A DNA stretch of 64,000 nt from Candidatus Falkowbacteria bacterium (GCA_016432645.1 CP066698.1:645062-709061); one strand, 5' to 3'. Counted from the first letter of the stretch, positions 2,659 through 34,304 are shown. Notes: generated from the sequence alone by a model not told the origin. A program made the numbers and translations.

Positions 2659-3930
2659 TTACAGTTCTAATTTTGCGGAAACCCCTGGCTTATCGCTTTC
2701 AGAAAAAATGTTTATACCTCCATATTGGCCATCAAATCCAGGATTGATGACTAGCTCGCCAGAACGCATTCGCCTTATGCCTTCAATAATCCGCCAATCA
2801 GTGTTATCTTTTAATTTTTCCAAATCACAATCTAAAAGAATGAATAATTCGCTGCCAAATTTAACAATTAATCTTTGATATTCGGCCTGCACCTGCTTAG
2901 ACGAGCGGCTTTTAATATTAAGGGCTTCCGCAATTATCTTGTCTAATTCTATAATTTTTTTAAAAGAAGCGGCGGTCTCTGGTTTAAAGCCAAGCGGCCG
3001 ATCGGCCAGTTCAACAACTCTATTTAAAACTCCAATCACTAGAGGCTTTTTACAAACTGGGCATAAATTATTAAGTTTTTTACTTTCCTCGGGCAAACAG
3101 CTGAAATGACAATCGCGATGTCCGTCTATATGATACATGCCTTCTTCCGGATAAAATTCAATTGTCGAAACAATACCTGATTTCCCACCCCGTTTATGAT
3201 TCTTAATAACTTCGTATATCTGATTATAGTTGATCGGTGCTTCCAGCTCCATGACCGTGGCCTCGCGGCCAATATTAGCCGGACTATGCGCATCGGAGCT
3301 AGATAATAGCGTTAGCTTATCTAGGGCCGATAAGCGCCAATTCATTTCCGGGTCGCTAGAAAGACCGGTCTCGTAAGCATAAATATTTTCAGTTTCCTCT
3401 TTGAAACATTCCTCTAAAGTATTAAAGCCTGACTTGGAGCCAAAGACGGAAAACCAGGGCGTCCAAATATGAGCGGGGTAAACTAAAAAATGTTCATCAA
3501 TATCTAGCAATAATCTTACCAGTTCCGGCGCTTTAATTCCTAGAATCGGGCGGCCATCGGATTTAATATTATATCTTGCTCCCAAGCGTTCATTTAATTT
3601 AGCAACCGCTTCAATACTAGGCGCATGAATGACTAAATGAATACGCCGCGCCCTAACTTCATCTTTATAAATTAGCGCTACTTCCGTCGACAGAATAAAT
3701 TTAATTTTATCATCCGGCGCGGTCTTTAATTTATACAAGCCGGAGCCGGCAAAAGTTTCTTCTAGCTGTTCACTAATGGCTTTAAACCAGGCCGGATAGG
3801 TAAAATCGCCGGTGGCAATAATATCAATCCCTTTTTCGCGGCAAGTTTTATCAATATTTGTTAAAGTTAGCTGCGGCGAACAAGCTCGAGAATAGGGGGA
3901 ATGAATATGTAAATCCAGAACTTGTTTCAT
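2659..3930 (-). CDS. PHP-domain nuclease with Zn ribbon, endonuclease Q (EndoQ/COG1379)-like
   Basis: DLHIHSPYSRA, ATGDFTYP, YPAHIWTPW, ETGLSSD, SSSDAHSPANIGRE, YHIDGHR, CPVCKKPL, NRVVELADR, FGSE and NPGFDGQYGGINIF follow the order I recall for archaeal EndoQ. Confidence 0.7.
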   Translation of the reverse strand: MKQVLDLHIHSPYSRACSPQLTLTNIDKTCREKGIDIIATGDFTYPAWFKAISEQLEETFAGSGLYKLKTAPDDKIKFILSTEVALIYKDEVRARRIHLVIHAPSIEAVAKLNERLGARYNIKSDGRPILGIKAPELVRLLLDIDEHFLVYPAHIWTPWFSVFGSKSGFNTLEECFKEETENIYAYETGLSSDPEMNWRLSALDKLTLLSSSDAHSPANIGREATVMELEAPINYNQIYEVIKNHKRGGKSGIVSTIEFYPEEGMYHIDGHRDCHFSCLPEESKKLNNLCPVCKKPLVIGVLNRVVELADRPLGFKPETAASFKKIIELDKIIAEALNIKSRSSKQVQAEYQRLIVKFGSELFILLDCDLEKLKDNTDWRIIEGIRRMRSGELVINPGFDGQYGGINIFSESDKPGVSAKLEL

Positions 3931-8671: not shown

Positions 8672-8789
8672 GTTCTGGCGGCGACCTACTTTCCCAGGGC
8701 TCAGGCCCAAGTATCATCGGCGCTGTCTGGCTTAACTTCTGAGTTCGAGAAGGGATCAGGTGTGACCCAGACGCTTTAACCACCAAAAC
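8672..8789 (-). rRNA. rrf: 5S rRNA
   Basis: The reverse complement reads gttttggtggt..cacctgatcccttctcgaactcagaagttaagc..gccgatgatacttggg..gggaaagtaggtcgccgccagaac. Helix I pairs the two ends, and a flanking caccattgtt/aacaatggtg stem extends it. Confidence 0.93.
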
Positions 8790-8887
8790 AATGGTGTCTT
8801 TTATATATTAAGCGCTATCGCGCTAAAAACCATTGGTATTATTATATATGTTACAGAGTAAAAATTCAAAACTTTAAAAATAAAAGT

Positions 8888-11897
<3,010 letters not shown>

Positions 11898-18195: not shown

Positions 18196-18399
18196 CTAAT
18201 CTAAAGACTTAAAATAATCACAATGGCCCTCCGGAGAAATCTCGCCATTTTCCGCTAACAATTCTTCAAAGGTTTTTTCACTAGAAGTAACGCAAACATA
18301 TTTTCCGTCCTGTCCATAAAAACTAGCACAATGCTGGCACTGCGTCGCTTCATTACCCCACTCATTAACATATTCGCTATCTAAGCTGCGTTCTGACAT
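18196..18399 (-). CDS. small Cys-rich protein (C-x2-C ... C ... C), possible metal/FeS binder
   Basis: 67 aa with CQHCASFYG..YVCV..GHCDYF. The spacing is reminiscent of HiPIP-type clusters, but there is no signal peptide. Confidence 0.45.
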   Translation of the reverse strand: MSERSLDSEYVNEWGNEATQCQHCASFYGQDGKYVCVTSSEKTFEELLAENGEISPEGHCDYFKSLD

Positions 18400-18527
18400 A
18401 TAATTATAATTTATTTTATTAAAATAATTATATCATTTAATAAAGCCGGCGCAAGCCATCATTAAAAATACTAAGCCAAGAAAAAAGCGCCAAGTTTCCT
18501 TGACGCTTCGCAATCACAAAAAATTTC

Positions 18528-19298
18528 TCAGTTTTTTTCACGAGTCCGGATAATTTCCGGGGGCCGAAGATTTACTTCAATTTTTTTCGCATCGGCGAAA
18601 AGATGACCGAAGATAAGGTCGGGCTTAAACCACTTTTGTTCTAATTCTTTAGCTTTCAGTTTCTTTTGCTGCCAGGCGATAATATCATCGCGAACTAATT
18701 CGCGGCGATCGGACAAGAATTTGGCCAAGATTTTTTCCAGCGATTTATTAAAGTGAAAACAATTTCTATTTCTCCAAATGCCACTGCGTGCCTGAATCAT
18801 TTCTTCCAAATCTTCCGCCTGAAAATCTCCGTTTAAAATAAACTTAAGTTCCAAAACGATAAATGCTAAAAGTTTACCATTCATCGGAAAGATTACATGC
18901 AGTTCCAATTCTCGCTCCCGGTTATTTTCGCTCATATCCCAAAATTCCGGAAAAATAATTTCCGCATAAGGAACTTTGCCCCAAAGCGGCTTACGATAAA
19001 TTACCGCAGCATCCTGAATACCATCCGGCTTGATTAAAACAATCCGTCTTTTCATATTATAGAAATAGGTCATAAAAAAGAACGGCACCATAATATTTAA
19101 AACGGCGATAGCAAGCATTGCCCAAAACACCCAAGTCATCAAATCGTTTGTCAAAAAATCTTGAAAATCAGGAACGTCTTTAGAAAACGCGAGTAAAATT
19201 AAAACCGGGATAAAGATGGGCAAAAAAATCAGCCACAAAACGGCGATTATCGGGTTTTCAGCAACCAAAATAAAATACTTTTGTAAAAGCTTTTTCAT
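18528..19298 (-). CDS. 2-TM membrane protein, paralogue A of a three-member family in this window
   Basis: Shares YRKPLWGKVPYAEIIFPEFWD, LELKFILNGDFQAEDLEEMI and a C-terminal ..KKIEVNL.. block with 19471..20257 and 24622..25380. Confidence 0.7.
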   Translation of the reverse strand: MKKLLQKYFILVAENPIIAVLWLIFLPIFIPVLILLAFSKDVPDFQDFLTNDLMTWVFWAMLAIAVLNIMVPFFFMTYFYNMKRRIVLIKPDGIQDAAVIYRKPLWGKVPYAEIIFPEFWDMSENNRERELELHVIFPMNGKLLAFIVLELKFILNGDFQAEDLEEMIQARSGIWRNRNCFHFNKSLEKILAKFLSDRRELVRDDIIAWQQKKLKAKELEQKWFKPDLIFGHLFADAKKIEVNLRPPEIIRTREKN

Positions 19299-19365
19299 GA
19301 TACTTTGTTTATGAAGGTTAATACTAATTAATTCCTTATTTGTTAAAGAGTGAATTTAACATTTT

Positions 19366-19394
19366 AGATTAACACAATAGTTTTTCTCGGTCAA
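19366..19394 (-). promoter_or_regulatory. promoter of paralogue A (TTGACC-N17-TAATCT)
   Basis: Minus strand ttgacc-gagaaaaactattgtgt-taatct. The 19-mer tgtgttaatctaaaatgtt is identical to the one upstream of paralogue C. Confidence 0.6.
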
Positions 19395-19405
19395 TAAAAG
19401 GCAAA

Positions 19406-19441
19406 TAAAAAGACTCGCTTACCTAATAAGGAAACGAGTCT
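19406..19441 (-). terminator. terminator of paralogue B
   Basis: Minus strand agactcg..cgagtct hairpin followed by ttttt. Confidence 0.6.
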
Positions 19442-19470
19442 CAATATCTGTGTCCAAGTGGACAAATGTT

Positions 19471-20257
19471 TTAGAGAACAGCAGCAGCTCTGTTAAGTGG
19501 GAACATTTGAACCGTTGGGTTCGTTTTTATCATTCTTTGAACCGCGGTCAGATTCAATTCCATTTTTTTCACATTCGTGAAGAGGTCAGGAATTTTAACC
19601 ATTTGTAGAACACCATTTTCTAATAACTTTAAATTTATTTGCCCCAGATGGTAATCGGTGAGCAAAAATTTAATTGAATGGTGATTGCGCCGGCAATCGG
19701 CAACGAGAAAGTCCTGTAGACAATCAATGAATTCAAATTTTGTTTGATTTGGAAACTTTGCTTTTTGTGAAACAATTAATTTTTCCAAATCTTGAGCTTT
19801 GAACTCGCCGAAAACTTCAGCCTTAAGATCAAATTGTAATAGGAAAATTTCCTGTGACGAAATGGCCAAGCCAATCAACAAAGAAGTTTGATGCTGGCCA
19901 ATCGTATGAGTCACATCCCAGTCATCCGGGAAAATAATTTCTACAAACGGAACCTTTTTAAAAATTGGTCGATTGTAGATTTTCACTTTTCCGCCATAAT
20001 ACAACAGCGGAATGCGGTGCTTATTTCTGGAAAACCAGGTAACAAATAGTTTGGTAGCCGTCAGATGGGCAATACCCAAAATGGCCAGTGCCAAAAAAAA
20101 AGAATTTGGCAACTTTTGTTACCATGAGGTAATCCCGAAAGATTGCAGAGATGGCCATCATAACAATGGCAAAAAGGAAAACAACTATCGTGGCCGACAG
20201 CAAAGGTTGTTCAACTACGATTAACGAAGCAAGTCTCAATTTCAAATTTGTTTTCAT
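19471..20257 (-). pseudogene. paralogue B, reading frame broken at a T9 (coding-strand) homopolymer
   Basis: ORF 20021..20257 encodes the N-terminal TM1 segment. ORF 19471..20112 encodes TM2 plus the conserved domain (IYNRPIFKKVPFVEIIFPDDWD). The frames switch at A9 on the plus strand, 20093-20101, and T8 would give one ORF of about 260 aa. Confidence 0.7.
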
Positions 20258-20468
20258 GATTGCTAATTTTTAAGTTTATATTCGATGAATTGTAAAATTT
20301 ACCTGGAGCATACAGATGAACTTAACAATTAATCCAATCCTTTATGTTAAAGAGCGACTTTATAATAATATTAACATAAACTATTTTTTTAGCAAAAATA
20401 TTTAAGTTATATTAAAAAAAGAATCTTATAATTATACCACGAGAAGTGTAATTTGTCAATAATAGTGA

Positions 20469-20497
20469 TTGACACCCCCAACCATAAGTTTTAAGAT
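20469..20497 (+). promoter_or_regulatory. sigma70-type promoter for 20546..21070
   Basis: TTGACA, 17 nt, TAAGAT, 49 nt upstream of the ATG. Confidence 0.45.
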
Positions 20498-20545
20498 AAG
20501 CTGTTAAACAAATAGATCTTTAAAATAACTATTAAAACTAACGCC

Positions 20546-21070
20546 ATGGAACTTGAAGGCTTACACGAATGCCGGCTGGTAATTAGCCGCGTTCCCGAAC
20601 TACTGATTGCCGCTTTAGAGGCAATGACTCTCTCCTGGCTGGAAAACAGCAGCAACTTAGGGGCGACAAACATCCAATTAATGACAGTTGATGATTATCA
20701 AAAATTGGAACATCCCTACCGCGGCGCGCACCCTTTTCTCTGCTGCTATCCAGAACGAAACGGCAGCCGGCCACCAACAAGCGGCTTTCACGAGCCGCAA
20801 CCATTATTTGAATCTCGTAATTATGAGCATTTAACAAATGACTACAAAAAACTGGTCATGATGAACAAGCTAAAAAGCTTGATTAACAGCCATGATTTTA
20901 TGTCCAAACAAGTTGATAAATACGAGAGTGTTTATGGCCAAATTGTGCCCGCTCTGAGCCCAGAAGAAAGACTACAAAAAACTTTTATTCTGGAATTCAG
21001 TGACAACTACGAAAATTCCTTCCTCAGCATCTCCTTGGCTAAACAGCCAACCAGAAATCGCTGGGACTAA
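20546..21070 (+). CDS. hypothetical protein, 174 aa
   Basis: ORF with its own promoter and a shared terminator. The first half is locally GC-richer. No motif recognised. Confidence 0.5.
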   Translation: MELEGLHECRLVISRVPELLIAALEAMTLSWLENSSNLGATNIQLMTVDDYQKLEHPYRGAHPFLCCYPERNGSRPPTSGFHEPQPLFESRNYEHLTNDYKKLVMMNKLKSLINSHDFMSKQVDKYESVYGQIVPALSPEERLQKTFILEFSDNYENSFLSISLAKQPTRNRWD

Positions 21071-21104
21071 AAAAGACGGAACCTAAAAAATTCCGTCTTT
21101 TTTC
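21069..21104. terminator. bidirectional terminator
   Basis: aaaa-agacggaa-cctaaaaaa-ttccgtct-ttttt. Confidence 0.75.
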
Positions 21105-21123
21105 TTTTCTTTTTTATTAAAAT

Positions 21124-21894
21124 CTAATCAAGTTTACACTTTACCAACACCGAACGGTGATCGGAAATATATTTCCCTAAAATCGCCTTAGAAGCTTTGA
21201 GTCCGCGAATAAAAAACCAATCTAATTTTAAGTGAAAAATTTCCCAGCGGATGCTAAAAACTGACCAAGTCGTCCGCTTAATATCGGTCATGTCTTTAAA
21301 GCCGCCGCCATTAATTATTTTTAAAAATGGATAGCGCTCATCTTTTAAATAATCCTCGCTTCCCCTCAACAAACTAGCAGCCGGAACGCGATGAAACCGC
21401 TGCACAAATTTACGTCCGAAACCAGCAGCGGGGACAACTGTGTTAAAATCACCGCAAATAATCGCGGGGCCGATGAATTTCTTGGCATCGGCAAGAATAA
21501 ATTTTAGAGCCGCCGCTCTTTCTTTAGGGCCGATATCATGAATCTCAAAATGACAATTATAAATTTTTAAAACTTTATTGCCAATTTCCAGATTGGCCCA
21601 GAGCACTTCACCGGAAATCCTATCTAAAAACGAGGGGCAATTAATTTGTCCGCTGCTTATAATTTTAAATTTGCTTAAAATAACATTAATGCCGTTTTTA
21701 TCCTCCGGCGAAAAAACATAATTATATTTATGAGCCTCTTTAAAATAATCAAGCTCATCAATAATCGTTTCTCCTTCTTGCAAACAAATAATGTCGGCGT
21801 TTATTTTTTCAAGCGCCGGTTTTACTTTTTTGAAAAGAGTATGGGTATAATATTTTTTACCTTGGATATTCCAATCCAGAACCGAGAAAGTCAT
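21124..21894 (-). CDS. endonuclease/exonuclease/phosphatase (EEP) family protein
   Basis: LDWNIQG, ADIICLQE, CGDFN and SDHRSV motifs in canonical order. Confidence 0.8.
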   Translation of the reverse strand: MTFSVLDWNIQGKKYYTHTLFKKVKPALEKINADIICLQEGETIIDELDYFKEAHKYNYVFSPEDKNGINVILSKFKIISSGQINCPSFLDRISGEVLWANLEIGNKVLKIYNCHFEIHDIGPKERAAALKFILADAKKFIGPAIICGDFNTVVPAAGFGRKFVQRFHRVPAASLLRGSEDYLKDERYPFLKIINGGGFKDMTDIKRTTWSVFSIRWEIFHLKLDWFFIRGLKASKAILGKYISDHRSVLVKCKLD

Positions 21895-22536
21895 TTATTT
21901 ATGTTTAACTTCCACGATACGATACCAATCATTCTCAACTTGGACATACTGGCAGTCATTAAGAAGAATAAATTTGTTTTTAACTTTATAATTAAAGGCT
22001 AATCTTTGATTCAGATATCTTTCCTTAAAATGTTCGCTCCCCCAATGCGGAAAAACTACAAAATCCACTAGACTCAGGCCTCGATAGCCTTTCAGTTTTT
22101 TAGCGACATTAGCTTTATCTAAATTATAAACCGGATAAACATCCGGCCCGGCAATGATAGAGCCGGCGCTGGTGCCAATATAAATTTTACCGGCCTTAAC
22201 AGCCGCTCTAAAAACCGACAAAGAATTAGAAAGTTGGAGCTGTTGCAACAGATAAAAAGTATTGCCGCCGCTAAAATAAATAACATCAGCCTGTTTGACG
22301 GCCGCCGCCACCGCGGCTTTCTTTTTGCCGGTGACCGTATATTCCGCCACCTTAAACCCTGCTTTAATCAAAGCATTGCAATCACGGGTTTGCCAAGAAG
22401 TGTCTTTTTCGTTTTCGGCTGCGGTAGAAATAAAAAGAAGCTTTTTATTCTTAGCGCCGCCAATTTTCTTAGCAATATCACGCGCCACCGCATGCACGCT
22501 GGAAGTTAAAAAAATGCGTTTCGTAATTTTTGCCAT
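21895..22536 (-). CDS. peptidase S51 (peptidase E / type-1 glutamine amidotransferase-like)
   Basis: FSGGNTFYLLQQL and the nucleophile motif GTSAGSII. The stop codon abuts the ATG of the EEP gene. Confidence 0.75.
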   Translation of the reverse strand: MAKITKRIFLTSSVHAVARDIAKKIGGAKNKKLLFISTAAENEKDTSWQTRDCNALIKAGFKVAEYTVTGKKKAAVAAAVKQADVIYFSGGNTFYLLQQLQLSNSLSVFRAAVKAGKIYIGTSAGSIIAGPDVYPVYNLDKANVAKKLKGYRGLSLVDFVVFPHWGSEHFKERYLNQRLAFNYKVKNKFILLNDCQYVQVENDWYRIVEVKHK

Positions 22537-22537
22537 A

Positions 22538-23032
22538 TTATTTTTTCTTGAACATCGCGTAAGCTTGTTTAATTAATTTTACGCTATCAACCCCATTATA
22601 AAACTTGATCTTTCTTATATCTTTAATATTAATCCACTCCGCTTCTGACATATAGATTTTTTCATGCACATCGCAATTGGCCATAGAAATCCGGCCGCGC
22701 GGATTTTTACAAATATAATATATTAATATTCCCTGCAAACTTTTACGGCTCTCAATGCTGATAAAAAAACTGTCGGCCACGGTAACCAGTTTGTCAGGCA
22801 TAATCCGCAAACCGGTCTCCTCCCAAAATTCTCTTTTTAAAGCCTCGGCGATTAGCTCGCCTTTTTTAAGGCCGCCGCCGGGAAAATCATAACCATCCCA
22901 TTGCTTACTCAAAAGAATTTTATCGCCTTTAAACAGCAGTCCATAAACTGAGGGACGAAAAATCAATTCTTCTGCCTTAATTTTAAATTTTTTCTTGTTG
23001 ATATCTTCGCAGATAACTGTTTTGGATTTCAT
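22538..23032 (-). CDS. NUDIX hydrolase
   Basis: Nudix box GGGLKKGELIAEALKREFWEETGL. Confidence 0.88.
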   Translation of the reverse strand: MKSKTVICEDINKKKFKIKAEELIFRPSVYGLLFKGDKILLSKQWDGYDFPGGGLKKGELIAEALKREFWEETGLRIMPDKLVTVADSFFISIESRKSLQGILIYYICKNPRGRISMANCDVHEKIYMSEAEWINIKDIRKIKFYNGVDSVKLIKQAYAMFKKK

Positions 23033-23050
23033 ATATTGTTATTATAACAT

Positions 23051-23082
23051 AAAAAGCCCCTGTATATTCACAAGGGCTTTTT
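23051..23082. terminator. hairpin with A5/T5 flanks between the fusion gene and the NUDIX gene (terminator or attenuator)
   Basis: aaaaa-gcccctgt-atattc-acaagggc-ttttt with one C/A mismatch. A TATAAT-like ttataat follows on the minus strand. Confidence 0.55.
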
Positions 23083-23103
23083 AAAAGAACATTTAATGTT
23101 AGC

Positions 23104-24597
23104 TTATTCTTCCATCGCGGCTTTCAAATCGGCCCAATCTCTTTTGGGATCGGTACTCAAATGTTTAGCGGCAACTAATTCCGCAACCAAAGGATCTTCC
23201 TGTTCATACTGGTCAGAAGGCACGGAAATGCCGGAAATTATCGGCAACCCACGCCATTCTTCAGTGTATTTTTTGGAACGATTAGCAACACAAGCAATGC
23301 CGACAACAACGGCATCAACTGCATTAATGGCATCAATTGCTTTTTGGGTAGTGGCAAAATTATTGCACAGGTCCTCAAAAAGGATGACATACGAACCAAT
23401 TTCAACAGCTCCCGCATTACGGCGCATAACCAAATTCGATTGCTCTTTAGAGGTCGCGGTTTTAACGGCCGTTACCTCTTTTTCCAAACGTAATCCTGGA
23501 ATGTTAAGTAAACGCCCGACTTCTTGGGCGATTTTACTTCCACCCTCTGGAACGCCGATGAGATAATCAACCTTGTGCCCCCAGGTTTCTTCAAAAGCCA
23601 GGATTTTTTCGGCCATCAATTTGGCAAAATATTCAAGACGCTGAGGAGAGTCCTCAATTACGGCCAAATTAAAGTAAACATCGCCCACGAAATTCTTTTT
23701 ACCTGTCGGTGAATCATATTGACCGCTATAAGTAACCAGCGGCCCCATAAATTTTCCGTCAGGAGTTTTACGTGATTGGTAATGCCCCTCAAGATTTACC
23801 AGAGTTTCTAAAGGCTGACCTTTAATAAGACTCAAGGCGTCGGAGCGCAGGGCTTCAGCAATCGAAAGCTTGCGACTTTCAGAGGCAGAGATGCCTTTTT
23901 CAGAATTTCCCTTCATTAATTGGCCGCCAAGAACCAGATAATCAGCTCCGGCATCCAAGGTATTTTTAATGCCATCAATTCTGGCCGCTGATTGCTGACC
24001 AGCATCCATCCAGGAATCCCGAATCGCCGGGGTAATAAATTCAATGCAATCCGGTAAATTCTTTTTCAGAAGCGGCAGTTCCGCCGGTGAACAAACAACG
24101 GCATTAAAAAAATCCTCCTTAGGTAACAGGTTGGTAGCATCATTTAAAATCGCCATTCCCGGAAACATGCCACGACGCATCCGACATTCGTCCGGTTCAG
24201 TATCCGTCAACACGGAAACAATCGCAATTTTAACTCCCGCGGGAATCAAAGCGCGAACTTCACGGAAAGCTCGCAATGAAGAAGTGCTGACCATAGTCAG
24301 AATATCTCCTGAGCGCATGTATTTCAGGTATTTCAACAAAATATTTTTGTCGGTACCATTAGTATCCTGCAGTTTCAAATCCCAAAAAATAAAAATTTCG
24401 GGATATTCGTGAATCAAATATGGCAATATACCATCTTCACCCTTCATGCCTTCAAGATGCAAGGCATCATTGAATTTAAAATGACTGATAAAATCAGCCA
24501 TCTCGCCCGGTTCCTGCAGAGTTGCTTTAATTGTGTCCCAAACTGCTTGAGAATTTTTAAAGCCATCCAAGCCTAAAATAAACGGTTTTCTTTTCAT
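23104..24597 (-). CDS. fusion: OMP-decarboxylase-family domain (N) plus type-I phosphoribosyltransferase domain (C)
   Basis: N-terminal: FKFND, IFWDLKLQDTNGT (the DxKxxD pattern) and GADYLVLGGQLM. C-terminal: YLIGVPEGGSKIAQEVGRLLNIP and an acidic PRPP-loop start VILFEDLCNNFATT. 497 aa. Confidence 0.6.
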   Translation of the reverse strand: MKRKPFILGLDGFKNSQAVWDTIKATLQEPGEMADFISHFKFNDALHLEGMKGEDGILPYLIHEYPEIFIFWDLKLQDTNGTDKNILLKYLKYMRSGDILTMVSTSSLRAFREVRALIPAGVKIAIVSVLTDTEPDECRMRRGMFPGMAILNDATNLLPKEDFFNAVVCSPAELPLLKKNLPDCIEFITPAIRDSWMDAGQQSAARIDGIKNTLDAGADYLVLGGQLMKGNSEKGISASESRKLSIAEALRSDALSLIKGQPLETLVNLEGHYQSRKTPDGKFMGPLVTYSGQYDSPTGKKNFVGDVYFNLAVIEDSPQRLEYFAKLMAEKILAFEETWGHKVDYLIGVPEGGSKIAQEVGRLLNIPGLRLEKEVTAVKTATSKEQSNLVMRRNAGAVEIGSYVILFEDLCNNFATTQKAIDAINAVDAVVVGIACVANRSKKYTEEWRGLPIISGISVPSDQYEQEDPLVAELVAAKHLSTDPKRDWADLKAAMEE

Positions 24598-24621
24598 TTT
24601 CTTGATTTTTTTTGATTAATA

Positions 24622-25380
24622 CTAAATATGCAAGAATTGTTCTTGATCAAACAATTTTATTCTTATGTCTCCTCTTAACAATGAAATATAAGCATTCGCC
24701 TTAAAAAGAGGGTAAGGAAATTCAACCTCTGTTTGTATTAACTCTAAAATAGCCTTTTTATCAGCAATAGAACTAAATAACTGCTTCGCCAAGTCTTCAA
24801 GCTTAAGCTTGCGTTCCTCGTCGTTAAGATTAAATTCCGTAAAAACATTTTGGACACATTCATTAAGCTTGAATGTCCGCCGTTTCGGCTTCGCCTTTTG
24901 CCAGAGAATTAATTTATGCAATGTTGCCGCATCAAAATAATCACCCATCTCCAACTTTAAATTAAAGGGGATGATCACTTCTCTGCCTAAAGCTTCCAGC
25001 GTTAAGCTGACGCGGAAATCATGGCTCAGTACCTTCTTTTTGCCCCAGTCAGTCGGGAAATAAATTGTCTTATAATTAAATTTCCCCCACAACGGTTTTT
25101 TATAATACTCAAATTTACCGTTGGGATAATAAATTATAACCGCCATCCGATTATCATCAATCGAAAAACTGGTAATTTTGTTATGGACAACAAAAATGAT
25201 GCCGCCTAAAACAACAAGAATCAGCCAAGCAGGCCATAGTGAAGCAAGGATCTTCGGAGAAAACCCCGAAACAAAAATGATGACCACAATATAAGAAAGG
25301 ACGCATAAAACAGCGGCCATCTCTAATATTTGCATAACTTCATTAGCAAGGAATAAAAAGATTTTTTTCATTTTTATCAT
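24622..25380 (-). CDS. 2-TM membrane protein, paralogue C
   Basis: YYKKPLWGKFNYKTIYFPTDWG and LKLEMGDYFDAATLHKLI. A 24-nt gap with no hairpin separates it from the fusion gene downstream. Confidence 0.7.
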   Translation of the reverse strand: MIKMKKIFLFLANEVMQILEMAAVLCVLSYIVVIIFVSGFSPKILASLWPAWLILVVLGGIIFVVHNKITSFSIDDNRMAVIIYYPNGKFEYYKKPLWGKFNYKTIYFPTDWGKKKVLSHDFRVSLTLEALGREVIIPFNLKLEMGDYFDAATLHKLILWQKAKPKRRTFKLNECVQNVFTEFNLNDEERKLKLEDLAKQLFSSIADKKAILELIQTEVEFPYPLFKANAYISLLRGDIRIKLFDQEQFLHI

Positions 25381-25490
25381 TTTAAAGGATTAAATAATTA
25401 GATTAATTATTGAGATAAGCTCATCTCCAAGATTAACTCAATAATTAACCTAATCTTTCCTTATTTTTTAAAGACCAAAATCAACATTTT

Positions 25491-25519
25491 AGATTAACAC
25501 ATAAGCTAATATAGGTCAA
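25491..25519 (-). promoter_or_regulatory. promoter of paralogue C (TTGACC-N17-TAATCT)
   Basis: Minus strand ttgacc-tatattagcttatgtgt-taatct, then the shared aaaatgtt and ctttaa.aaataaggaa leader blocks. Confidence 0.6.
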
Positions 25520-25537
25520 ATTGGCATATATTATAAT

Positions 25538-25570
25538 AAAAAAGACGCTACTTCGCAGAACGCCTTTTTT
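25538..25570. terminator. hairpin terminator after 25589..26062
   Basis: A6, then a gacgc..gcgtt-type hairpin with G-U pairs, then T6. Confidence 0.45.
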
Positions 25571-25588
25571 CTAAATTAATATTGATTA

Positions 25589-26062
25589 TTAAGAATATTT
25601 TTTAACTACCGTCCTCATTCCGGTCAAACCTCCGTGTAGAGTGTCCCCGGTTATTAAAACGCAAGTTAATTGCACGACAATGATATTAAACAATAAAATA
25701 TCAAAAGGAAACCAGACATAAAAAAGCATGGACGAAAAACTGATAGTATAAAGAAGATTATAGGCGCAATAACGTAAAAAAGAAACATTATCATGCCAAT
25801 AAGAACCAACCACCAACATGCCTAAATCTCTTTTTTCTTTGAAGAACCCAAAAAAAGTTTCGTAAGCAAAGAAGGTGGCCAGTACTGATAATTTGAAGCG
25901 TAAATCAAAACCAAAAATATAAAAAGCGGGAAAGCTGATAATCGCGACTGTAGATACATTTACTAAAGAGGCTAATAACTTTTGGTGGGCGACGGTGGTG
26001 CGAAAAAATAATAAATGATATAAACGCGATAAGCTGGGAAGATTTTTAAAATAATTAGACAT
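25589..26062 (-). CDS. hypothetical polytopic membrane protein
   Basis: 157 aa with about four hydrophobic segments. Confidence 0.55.
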   Translation of the reverse strand: MSNYFKNLPSLSRLYHLLFFRTTVAHQKLLASLVNVSTVAIISFPAFYIFGFDLRFKLSVLATFFAYETFFGFFKEKRDLGMLVVGSYWHDNVSFLRYCAYNLLYTISFSSMLFYVWFPFDILLFNIIVVQLTCVLITGDTLHGGLTGMRTVVKKYS

Positions 26063-33241: not shown

Positions 33242-33313
33242 AGCGGGTAACGGGAATCGAACCCGTCTCTCGACCTTGGCAAGGTCGCATAATAACCACT
33301 ATACGATACCCGC
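33242..33313 (-). tRNA. tRNA-Gly (anticodon GCC)
   Basis: Reverse complement: gcgggta-tc-gtat-agtggtta-ttat-g-cgacc-ttGCCaa-ggtcg..gacgg-gttcgat-tcccg.. with acceptor gcgggta/tacccgc. Confidence 0.88.
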
Positions 33314-33333
33314 ATATTTGTATCGTTTCTACG

Positions 33334-33417
33334 TGCCGCGAGCGAGAATCGAACTCGCACTGTATCGCTACAACTGGATTTTAAGTCCAGCGCGTCTACC
33401 AGTTCCGCCATCGCGGC
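33334..33417 (-). tRNA. tRNA-Leu (anticodon TAA), long variable arm
   Basis: Reverse complement: acceptor gccgcga/tcgcggc, anticodon loop ctTAAaa, variable arm gttgtagcgatacagt, T arm gcgag-ttcgatt-ctcgc. 84 nt. Confidence 0.88.
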
Positions 33418-33444
33418 TCTTGCTTGAAGCTAAAAGCCAAGCTG

Positions 33445-33828
33445 TGGAGATGATGGGAGTTGAACCCATGTCCAATCGGTTTGTCTAAATACATTTACAA
33501 AGTTATCCCGATTTTATTGTTTTAACTTGAACCATCATAAACCGAGCAAAAGCGGTGCAAGCGATCTTCTTTTGGTTTTGATAACGCCCGAAAAGCGCAA
33601 GCGATATCTATCCTCATTTTTATGACACCAGCTGGAAGTTATGAGGCCTGGCCTCCAGTCCGATGGCTTTAGCTATTAATTAAGCTAAAACTGGGGCGTA
33701 ACTTGGTGTTGCCCAAGTAAACGCTTTTGCCGTTTTGGCATTTGTGTTTTTTTAGTCCTTTTAACGCGATTGGCTAAGCGCGCTTTGAATATTTAGAAAA
33801 AGGCCAACTGTCGATTCCTGGCATCCCC
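33445..33828 (-). ncRNA. ssrA: tmRNA (SsrA)
   Basis: The 5' end ggggatgccaggaatcgac pairs with the 3' end ggacatgggttcaactcccatcatctcca (tRNA-like domain). The internal tag frame GCC AAA ACG .. GTT TTA GCT TAA (33739-33680) encodes AKTAKAFTWATPSYAPVLA*. It lies directly downstream of smpB. Confidence 0.9.
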
Positions 33829-33839
33829 GAAATCTCTTG

Positions 33840-34304
33840 TTATCTTTTTCCTCTCTTTGTAAATGTCCGCAAATCGCGTTCGACGTCTCGTTTCTTGATT
33901 GCCTCCCGTTTATCATACCTCTTCTTTCCCTTCCCAACGGCAAATTCCAGCTTCAAAAAACTATGTTTAGTATATATTTTGATGGGGACTAGTGTCAAGC
34001 CCTCCTCCTTTTTTTTGCCTAAGAGCCGGTTAATTTCCCCCTTTTTAACTAATAATTTACGTTCCCGATTCCTGTCATAATCCGGCATAGTTCCCGCTTG
34101 TTTATAGGGCGGGATTTGGCAACCGATTAAAAATAACTCCGTTTTGCCATTAGTTGTCCGCACGCTGAGATAACTGCCCTTCAAACTCGCCTGGCCGGCC
34201 CGGACTGATTTGACTTCATGACCAAACAAAACTAGACCTGCCTCGTATTTCTCGAGCAGCTCATAATCAAAACTAGCTTTTTTGTTTATGGCCAGCGTCG
34301 GCAT
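33840..34304 (-). CDS. smpB: SsrA-binding protein SmpB
   Basis: INKKASFDYELLEKYEAGLVLFGHEVKSVR, YIPPY-like IPPYKQ, RERKLLVKK and a basic tail. 154 aa. Confidence 0.93.
   Translation of the reverse strand: MPTLAINKKASFDYELLEKYEAGLVLFGHEVKSVRAGQASLKGSYLSVRTTNGKTELFLIGCQIPPYKQAGTMPDYDRNRERKLLVKKGEINRLLGKKKEEGLTLVPIKIYTKHSFLKLEFAVGKGKKRYDKREAIKKRDVERDLRTFTKRGKR

Follow-up and report, generated by a model that had tools for sequence, protein, structure and literature searches.

A conserved promoter and candidate structured leader RNA upstream of tandem membrane-protein paralogues in Candidatus Falkowbacteria

The stretch of 64,000 nucleotides analyzed here (the window; GCA_016432645.1 CP066698.1:645062-709061) derives from the 977-kb genome of a groundwater Candidatus Falkowbacteria bacterium (Patescibacteria, Candidate Phyla Radiation, CPR) and carries three diverged genes, paralogues A, B and C, for proteins with two N-terminal transmembrane (TM) helices. 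The genes, their promoters and their leaders all lie on the minus strand. Comparison with the loci of relatives showed that the DNA upstream of these genes is an old, family-wide module composed of a promoter and a structured leader, and that in the lineage of the window one ancestral operon was split into three units, each keeping the module. Judged from conservation and base-pair compensation in the sequences, the leader is probably a functional, transcribed cis-regulatory element, although some of the evidence pulls the other way. The genes and their putative promoters are:

18528..19298 (minus): paralogue A, an open reading frame (ORF) of 256 aa, equal to NCBI HY931_03130; family hidden Markov model (HMM) E 2.7e-76.
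19471..20257 (minus): paralogue B, with a +1 frameshift; 262 aa if repaired (orthologues 261 aa); the family HMM matches both pieces.
24622..25380 (minus): paralogue C, 252 aa (NCBI 249 aa, QQG52313.1, HY931_03165); family HMM E 1.6e-70.
19366..19394 (minus): promoter of A, read from the sequence, with -35 TTGACC at 19389-19394, TG at 19373-19374 and -10 TAATCT at 19366-19371.
25491..25519 (minus): promoter of C, from sequence and conservation, with TTGACC at 25514-25519, TG, and TAATCT at 25491-25496.
20368..20395 (minus): proximal promoter of B, TTGCTA-N16-(TGt)TAATAT, read from the sequence.
20431..20459 (minus): second promoter upstream of B, TTGACA-N17-TATAAT with TG, a 12/12 consensus match.

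The family HMM, a profile scanned against the 64-kb window and the relatives' loci, found no fourth copy in the window. An earlier note on this DNA had given the same coordinates for A and C, which were borne out, and had treated B as a single ORF, which it is not (see below). Its by-eye estimate of 25-30% protein identity agreed with the 26-27% computed pairwise from full-length alignment (B with the extra base removed), and the two N-terminal TM helices that it assigned to each protein appeared as two hydrophobic segments within the first ~80 residues. The motifs YxxPxWGKxPY..I.FP..W and LK.E..G.F.A..L..(M/L)I that it took to be shared are present in all three copies; its C-terminal motif, KK(I/M)E(V/L)NL, is present in A and B only.

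DNA from the -35 element to a conserved box in the leader was 75-92% identical among family members, compared to 54-58% for coding DNA (79% and 54%, respectively, for A versus C). The exact 19-mer TGTGTTAATCTAAAATGTT lies at 19358-19376 and 25483-25501, and no other match to it with 3 or fewer mismatches was found in 64 kb (0.02 expected). TTGACC-N17-TAATCT and TCTTTAA(C/A)AAATAAGG are also common to A and C, and the weaker counterpart in B consists of TTGCTA-N16-TAATAT and TCTTTAACATAAAGG; all of these elements are as the earlier note had described them. Promoter conservation was counted over 12 A/C-type leaders. The -35 hexamer and TG were invariant, the -10 element (TAAYNT) kept T1, A2 and T6, and the 14-nt spacer was fixed in length while variable in sequence (mean majority-base frequency 0.60). 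Such a pattern is typical of extended -10 sigma70-type promoters, and TTGACC-N14-TGnTAnnnT is accordingly predicted to be one, having a TTGACA-like -35, 17-bp spacing and TG before TAnnnT. Terminators are located directly before the -35 in A and C, and also in L007, L008, L009 and L018 (L numbers denote the relatives' loci), so that transcription must start at the module promoter. For B, the proximal promoter is kept in L001B, L005B, L012B and L017B, with -10 variants TAGAAT and TAAGCT. The second promoter lies 45 nt further upstream. L001 and L005 conserve it, L012 has the flank downstream of it, and B-type genes may thus have tandem promoters and a leader of ~165 nt.

The relatives' loci were gathered via protein patterns, one DNA pattern and exact-protein look-ups. 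Across them, the module consists of TTGACC, the 14-nt variable spacer and TGnTAnnnT, then TAAAATGTTAAAT, ~5 nt and CTCTTTAAnAAAtAAGG; in its 3' part follow a long hairpin with the foot ATTAGGTTAATTATT ... AATAATTAATCTAAT, then ATTAACCTTTATAAAA, 5-15 nt and ATG. Of 14 independent arrays in other Falkowbacteria and Patescibacteria, 13-14 have it ahead of their first family gene (seen in L005, L006, L007, L008, L009, L012, L013, L016, L017, L018, L025 and L027), even though the proteins of module-bearing arrays share only about 20-45% identity with A, B or C. When the leader DNA pattern was searched in the JGI metagenome collection, 3/3 matching stretches were upstream of family genes; in viral contigs it had no match. 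The suggestion of the earlier note, that non-coding sequence conserved better than coding sequence reflects a shared regulator or RNA element, thus gained support from the occurrence of the module in many genomes and from a covarying, strand-specific hairpin within it.

An exact 19-mer at two places 6 kb apart might also be taken as a hint of a recent local duplication or a gene-conversion tract of no functional meaning. The same exact 19-mer, however, stands before a 41%-identical homologue in another genome (L013), which indicates that the A/C identity reflects deep conservation rather than gene conversion, and variants with one to three base changes occur in every relative. Furthermore, the leader of C is nearer to those of L006 and L018 than to that of A, and the -35/-10 spacers differ between A and C while the functional hexamers match. 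With the block present in orthologues and distant homologues alike, recent copying is scarcely credible as an explanation. We conclude that purifying selection on an old cis-regulatory module, not recent copying, left the upstream DNA better conserved than the genes.

The leaders of the three copies differ in the extent of the hairpin that follows the box:

19299..19360 (minus): leader of A, 'short' type; GTTAAAT, box CTCTTTAACAAATAAGG at 19334-19350, remnant stem TTAAT-tagt-ATTAA, then ATTAACCTTCATAAA; covariance model R1, 36.8 bits.
20258..20364 (minus): leader of B; box TCTTTAACATAAAGG at 20339-20353 and hairpin ATTGGATTAATTGTTAAG...TTTTACAATTCATCGAAT at 20280-20338, from folding and pair counts; R1, 91.4 bits.
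25381..25485 (minus): leader of C, 'long' type; GTTGAT, box TCTTTAAAAAATAAGG at 25459-25474, hairpin at 25397-25454, then ATTTAATCCTTTAAA and ATG; R1, 91.9 bits.

With filters off, R1, a model constructed from the leader alignment, matched only these three leaders in the 64-kb window; a weak R1 match in L005 was inside a coding region and was discarded. Among the 4227 models of Rfam 15, none reached its gathering score in the window and none matched at E up to 5 on 19250-25600. Most other window genes have short leaders or none, which makes the long family leaders exceptional. The start of C may be either of two in-frame ATGs three codons apart (25372-25380), the second being the NCBI start; the leader alignment fits either.

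For 12 long and B-type leaders in a plain MAFFT alignment, RNAalifold predicted one helix of 17 pairs, with compensatory changes in 5 pairs. With the distant L025 leader, L015 and a second L009 element (described below) added, the helix became a continuous 18 pairs with 92% of cells paired, of which 10 pairs were changed on both sides; helix registers slid by 1-3 columns reached 19-52% pairing only. A-U was replaced by G-C at columns 48/104 in six sequences, and the hairpin arms of L025 were fully re-coded (ATTAAACTAATTACTAAG / CTTTAGTAATTAGTTTAAT). The leader of C folds at -29.5 kcal/mol (z = -4.7). The cells of the helix include 21 G.U against 1 A.C, so that pairing is far better in the sense strand, which fits a transcript and not a DNA cruciform or protein half-sites. 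A conserved helix with compensatory sense-strand changes upstream of one gene family is what is expected of a structured cis-regulatory 5' leader RNA, and these sequences point to one here.

Several points weigh against this reading. The sequences are few and related, so that the shuffle test, in which 0 of 500 shuffles were as good as the 18-pair helix, overstates significance. The L024 array has a degenerate leader only, and at least two lineages do without the hairpin, as seen in the short leaders of L027 and of A-type genes. Where transcription begins, and that it runs through the leader, we infer from where the promoter and the upstream terminators lie. Between -10 and +35 the primary sequence is strongly conserved, with no pair changed on both sides, and this block could act as DNA. 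Within it, the pairing TGTTAAA-N7-TTTAACA is 87% paired, shows no double changes and has a G-C pair broken in 7/12 leaders; either an RNA hairpin at the 5' terminus or a DNA palindrome spanning the start site may account for it. A transcription factor might accordingly bind this palindrome, and perhaps the arms ATTAGGTTAATTATT / AATAATTAATCTAAT as well, in which case inverted-repeat operators would give rise to the RNA fold as a by-product: at the base of the hairpin both sequence and pairing are conserved, and covariation would be mimicked if both arms carried a copy of the same half-site change. Such an operator is hard to reconcile with the stems above the conserved foot, which vary in length and sequence yet remain paired, or with arms whose separation varies between 25 and 60 bp. 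Read on the opposite strand, the 21 G.U cells would become A.C mismatches, a kind of cell of which only 1 exists. No conserved candidate regulator gene was found nearby when the relatives' loci were compared, and the palindrome has no further copies in the 64-kb window. We consider it rather unlikely that the conserved block acts as DNA in place of RNA, and retain the transcribed, structured leader as the favored account.

An 8-codon mini-ORF at 19336-19362 and 25461-25487 (minus), which begins with the ATG of AAAATGTTAAAT, stops at the TAA of AAATAAGG and overlaps the box, raises another possibility: a short leader peptide (MLNSLFNK in A, MLILVFKK in C) with a leaderless start, whose translation would open the hairpin in an attenuation of the erm/cat type. 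An in-frame ATG...TAA mini-ORF ending at the hairpin foot is present in 9/11 A/C-type leaders, and many starts in the genome seem to be leaderless or to have short leaders. The start, however, is TTG in L007 (with a stop after 3 codons), CTG in L018, GTG in L027, CAG in L025 and AAG in the second L009 leader, and is absent in all five B-type leaders, while GTTAA and CTTTAA stay conserved. In addition, the third base of codon 5 is kept while its first base varies, and the stop is CAA in three leaders. Since the nucleotides are conserved where the start is not, the peptide does not explain the conservation, and we regard attenuation by a leader peptide as very unlikely.

The form of the hairpin was also informative. 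It is a single rod-like stem without a multi-helix junction, A/U-rich (GC 0.20-0.30), followed by AUUAACCUUUAUAAAA, with only three U after the stem. As a long A/T-rich inverted repeat with conserved ends, with AAGG and CCTT at its 5' and 3' feet, respectively, it might be thought a selfish repeat of the MITE/REP (miniature inverted-repeat transposable element/repetitive extragenic palindrome) kind, an intrinsic terminator or attenuator, or a stem that sequesters a Shine-Dalgarno (SD) sequence. The first was rejected because no other copies exist within 64 kb, a repeat search at 3 or fewer mismatches having matched only the two arms of C's own hairpin; the second because an A/U-rich stem with three U has no U tract and is not listed by the terminator scan. 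As for the third, an SD-like motif, even a weak one, precedes only 8 of the 44 starts of ORFs of at least 150 aa in the whole window, from which it follows that the conserved AAGG is not a ribosome-binding site. The AAGG/CCTT feet are not universal either, being absent in B-type leaders and missing from some short leaders also; in the long leaders the AAGG/CCUU closing helix is invariant. Taken together, these repeat, terminator and SD readings are highly improbable. The architecture of a riboswitch was not found either, the leader having no multi-helix junction, no terminator tail and no SD to sequester. Many window genes have a TATAAT-like box 3-10 nt before the ATG, which, with the scarcity of SD-like motifs, suggests that translation in this organism is SD-independent and often leaderless.

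The long hairpin has been lost from the leader of A. In A and its orthologues in L001, L005, L012 and L013, the 5' arm and the apex of the hairpin are gone and AAGGAATTAATTAGTATTAACCTT is left; the short leader of L027 is built differently and may reflect an independent loss. The short leaders show that the stem is modular and dispensable, unlike the promoter and box. The module may also serve more than one gene. L009 contains, at 2692-2810 (plus), a second, leader-like element (47 bits, E 1.5e-5) composed of GTTAAA, CCTTAAAAA, a 20-bp stem with a TTAATT core, TTAACC and an A-rich tail, and located upstream of ORF 2808-3242. This ORF encodes an orphan, non-membrane protein of 144 aa that is unrelated to the family and has no Pfam match and no relative among the gathered loci.

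Family genes commonly stand in tandem, often overlapping arrays, with two genes in L006, three in L007, three in L012 and four in L018 (260, 275, 254 and 256 aa). In the window, terminator-like hairpins separate the copies, and B is interrupted:

18484..18509 (minus): terminator-like hairpin with T run after A, from a consensus scan, 11-bp stem.
19404..19442 (minus): terminator hairpin (GAGACTCG...CGAGTCTTTTTATTT) between B and A, read from the sequence; a compensated version is kept in L001 and L005.
25535..25565 (minus): terminator-like hairpin with T run of the gene upstream of C, directly before C's -35; read from the sequence and not in the consensus scan.
20093..20101 (minus): T9 homopolymer with the extra base in B, from alignment to L001B and L005B, a single 1-nt gap.

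The terminator between B and A makes A a transcription unit of its own, and the hairpins between B and A, before C's -35 and after A together define three separate transcription units. The 787-nt interval of B (19471..20257) contains two ORFs in different frames, 20021..20257 and 19471..20112, owing to one extra T in the T9 run relative to the intact 261-aa orthologues; the intact gene is found in L001, L002 and L005. The frameshift could be a homopolymer assembly error, a young pseudogene or a slippage-type phase variation. The earlier note had seen neither this frameshift, nor the long hairpin after the box in B and C, nor the derivation of the three-promoter layout from a single-leader operon.

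The gene neighborhood of C differs among relatives. C and a neighboring 157-aa membrane ORF (25589-26062) are absent at the syntenic place in the closest relative, L001 (24622-26062 versus L001 2294-2772), where a 127-aa gene is followed by the OMPdecase fusion. This 497-aa OMP (orotidine monophosphate) decarboxylase/phosphoribosyltransferase fusion (pyrF-pyrE-like; 23104-24597, minus, in the window) lies beside family arrays in several genomes. In L009, L016 and L018, a family gene is directly upstream of the same OMPdecase gene, which indicates that the position of C is ancestral and that L001 has lost it.

An exhaustive profile search of 1.84 billion representatives returned 65 cluster representatives of the protein family, nearly all of ~250 aa. 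Word-indexed homologue search found 2-3 proteins only, even with a 46-sequence profile, and the exhaustive search was therefore needed. All named members are from Falkowbacteria or Patescibacteria, and the family is restricted to Falkowbacteria and close Patescibacteria. The earlier note could not place the domain in a known family, and searches of Pfam, NCBIfam, PADLOC, PHROGs and PDB sequences gave no match. In A, B and C, helices at residues ~16-75 make up the TM pair, with a K/R-rich N-terminus before TM1 and a K/R-rich stretch after TM2, so that the domain of ~180 aa should be cytoplasmic. AlphaFold2 modeled copy A from a 46-sequence alignment with confidence scores of pLDDT 90.5 and pTM 0.82 (pLDDT 91.5 for the domain alone). 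In the model, an amphipathic helix and two long TM helices precede a domain with a long beta hairpin, four helices and terminal strands. The nearly invariant residues are T77, Y101, P104, W106 and P117; that they are mostly aromatic or proline suggests a structural, not a catalytic, role.

The guess of the earlier note that the architecture resembles SPFH/band-7 proteins received weak structural support and none from sequence profiles. With both full and domain models, the top Foldseek matches were prohibitin, stomatin and HflK/C in the PDB and Band 7/SPFH proteins in BFVD. These matches were weak (E 3e-3 to 9e-3, TM-score 0.2-0.32, root-mean-square deviation 8-10 A). Band_7 (Pfam PF01145 and relatives) was not matched by A, B or C at E up to 10, or by any of 46 members at E up to 1, and hhalign of the family profile against E. 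coli QmcA/HflC/HflK returned a probability of 0.2% over 8 columns, with an SPFH profile that was thin (3 sequences). On the SPFH reading, the family would be a true, very divergent SPFH/band-7 family, with paralogues that form a ring partnering a nearby FtsH, like HflK/HflC. Two hydrophobic helices do supply the N-terminal membrane anchor of SPFH proteins, and the paralogue sets recall HflK/C and PHB1/2. Moreover, ftsH is located 1.8 kb from A, the order array, 67-aa ORF, S1 and FtsH recurs in L001 and L013, and in L025 a family gene is near S1 and FtsH on the opposite strand; this shared synteny, however, is one of housekeeping genes in closely related genomes. The model also lacks a long C-terminal coiled-coil helix, the longest post-TM helix being 15 residues and the protein ending in beta strands. 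True membership is thus doubtful. We use 'SPFH-like scaffold', a phrase suggested by the multi-paralogue arrays and the nearby ftsH, as a working analogy and a lead only, not as a statement of membership.

Other features of the loci were noted. The 67-aa ORF (18196-18399, minus) is Cys-rich (CQHC...C...HC), follows the family array here and in L001, L013, L018 and L020, and has no Pfam match. Three tRNA-like genes and small multi-TM proteins are upstream of the family locus in the more distant relatives L024 (2600-3000) and L027 (2000-2330); these small proteins were considered as family members and rejected. Elsewhere in the window, 23S and 5S rRNA genes occupy 8673-11894 (minus); no 16S rRNA gene was found anywhere in the 64 kb, so that the rRNA operon appears split. 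A tmRNA gene (33242-33828, minus) adjoins two tRNA genes, and ORF 33840-34304 is presumably smpB.

These observations are consistent with the following mechanism. Two to four overlapping paralogues normally form one operon headed by the module, an organization from which the proteins probably form a hetero-oligomeric membrane complex. Transcription would start a few bases after TAATCT and produce a leader of 60-150 nt. After GTTAA(A) and the CTCTTTAAnAAAtAAGG box, this leader contains a hairpin of 20-30 bp, conserved in sequence at its base, and an A/U-rich tail without structure that extends to the ATG. The leader would control expression after transcription has started. Most likely, its long double-stranded stem would serve as a binding or cleavage site for a protein (of the RNase III type or another RNA binder), and the stem-bound protein would determine how stable the mRNA is or how accessible its A/U-rich, SD-less start region is; the promoter-proximal block (-10 to +35) may additionally serve as an operator. 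In the lineage of the window the array was split into three transcription units, each with a copy of the module, and A's copy lost its hairpin. Confidence in any particular effector of the leader is low. A bolder version, in which the leader is a new class of signal-responsive CPR RNA that binds, through its sequence-conserved stem foot and single strands, a metabolite or a protein (perhaps the cytoplasmic domain of the controlled proteins themselves), so as to tune a lineage-specific, SPFH-like, hetero-oligomeric, FtsH-linked membrane scaffold, with the L009 copy as operator of a small regulon, is speculative and quite improbable.

We propose the leader as a new candidate cis-regulatory RNA motif on lineage-restricted tandem membrane-protein paralogues. 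To our knowledge, few regulatory RNAs have been described in the CPR, and its regulatory RNAs and promoters are almost unknown because its members are uncultured and have genomes of roughly 1 Mb with few recognizable regulators. The module is compact, supported by phylogeny and movable into a reporter system, and the protein family delimited by the analysis, which comprises at least 65 clusters, has a confident fold model and lacks annotation. Little is understood of the envelope biology of these organisms, and the multi-paralogue organization and the weak resemblance to SPFH proteins suggest that the family forms a membrane scaffold. The result is a solid candidate motif and a target for follow-up; it overturns no paradigm.

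Compared with known systems, the proteins resemble SPFH proteins (HflK-HflC, prohibitin 1/2, stomatin, QmcA) in having an N-terminal anchor followed by a compact cytoplasmic alpha/beta domain, as in stomatin, in occurring as paralogue sets with ftsH nearby, and in giving their best, though weak, structural matches there. They differ from SPFH proteins in showing no sequence or profile similarity, a TM-score of about 0.3 and no coiled-coil tail for rings, and in having two full TM helices plus an amphipathic helix and a motif of their own, YxxPxWGKxPY..I.FP..W.

The E. coli rnc and pnp leaders are long 5' untranslated-region hairpins that are targets of RNase III or of RNA-binding proteins. The leader described here is similar in its nearly perfect stem of 20-30 bp near the start codon, without a terminator tail, and its predicted function likewise would rest on a double-stranded region rather than a multi-helix aptamer. 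In contrast to those leaders, its stem foot and flanking single strands are conserved in sequence across genomes, the downstream gene encodes a membrane protein and not a protein of RNA metabolism, and the leader is known from sequence alone. ermC and cat are controlled by leader-peptide attenuators. Like these, 9/11 A/C-type leaders have a short ORF directly before a hairpin that precedes the gene start; unlike in these, the start of the mini-ORF is not conserved family-wide and is absent in B-type leaders, and there is no SD to release. The closest parallel in kind is with the orphan cis-regulatory RNA motifs that comparative genomics has revealed in front of membrane or hypothetical genes (Weinberg et al., 2010, PMC2864571; 2017, PMC5737381), with which the leader shares conservation and covariation, association with one gene family, a narrow taxonomic range and the lack of a known ligand or partner. 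Unlike those motifs, the leader described here carries its own conserved promoter and occurs in the Candidate Phyla Radiation.

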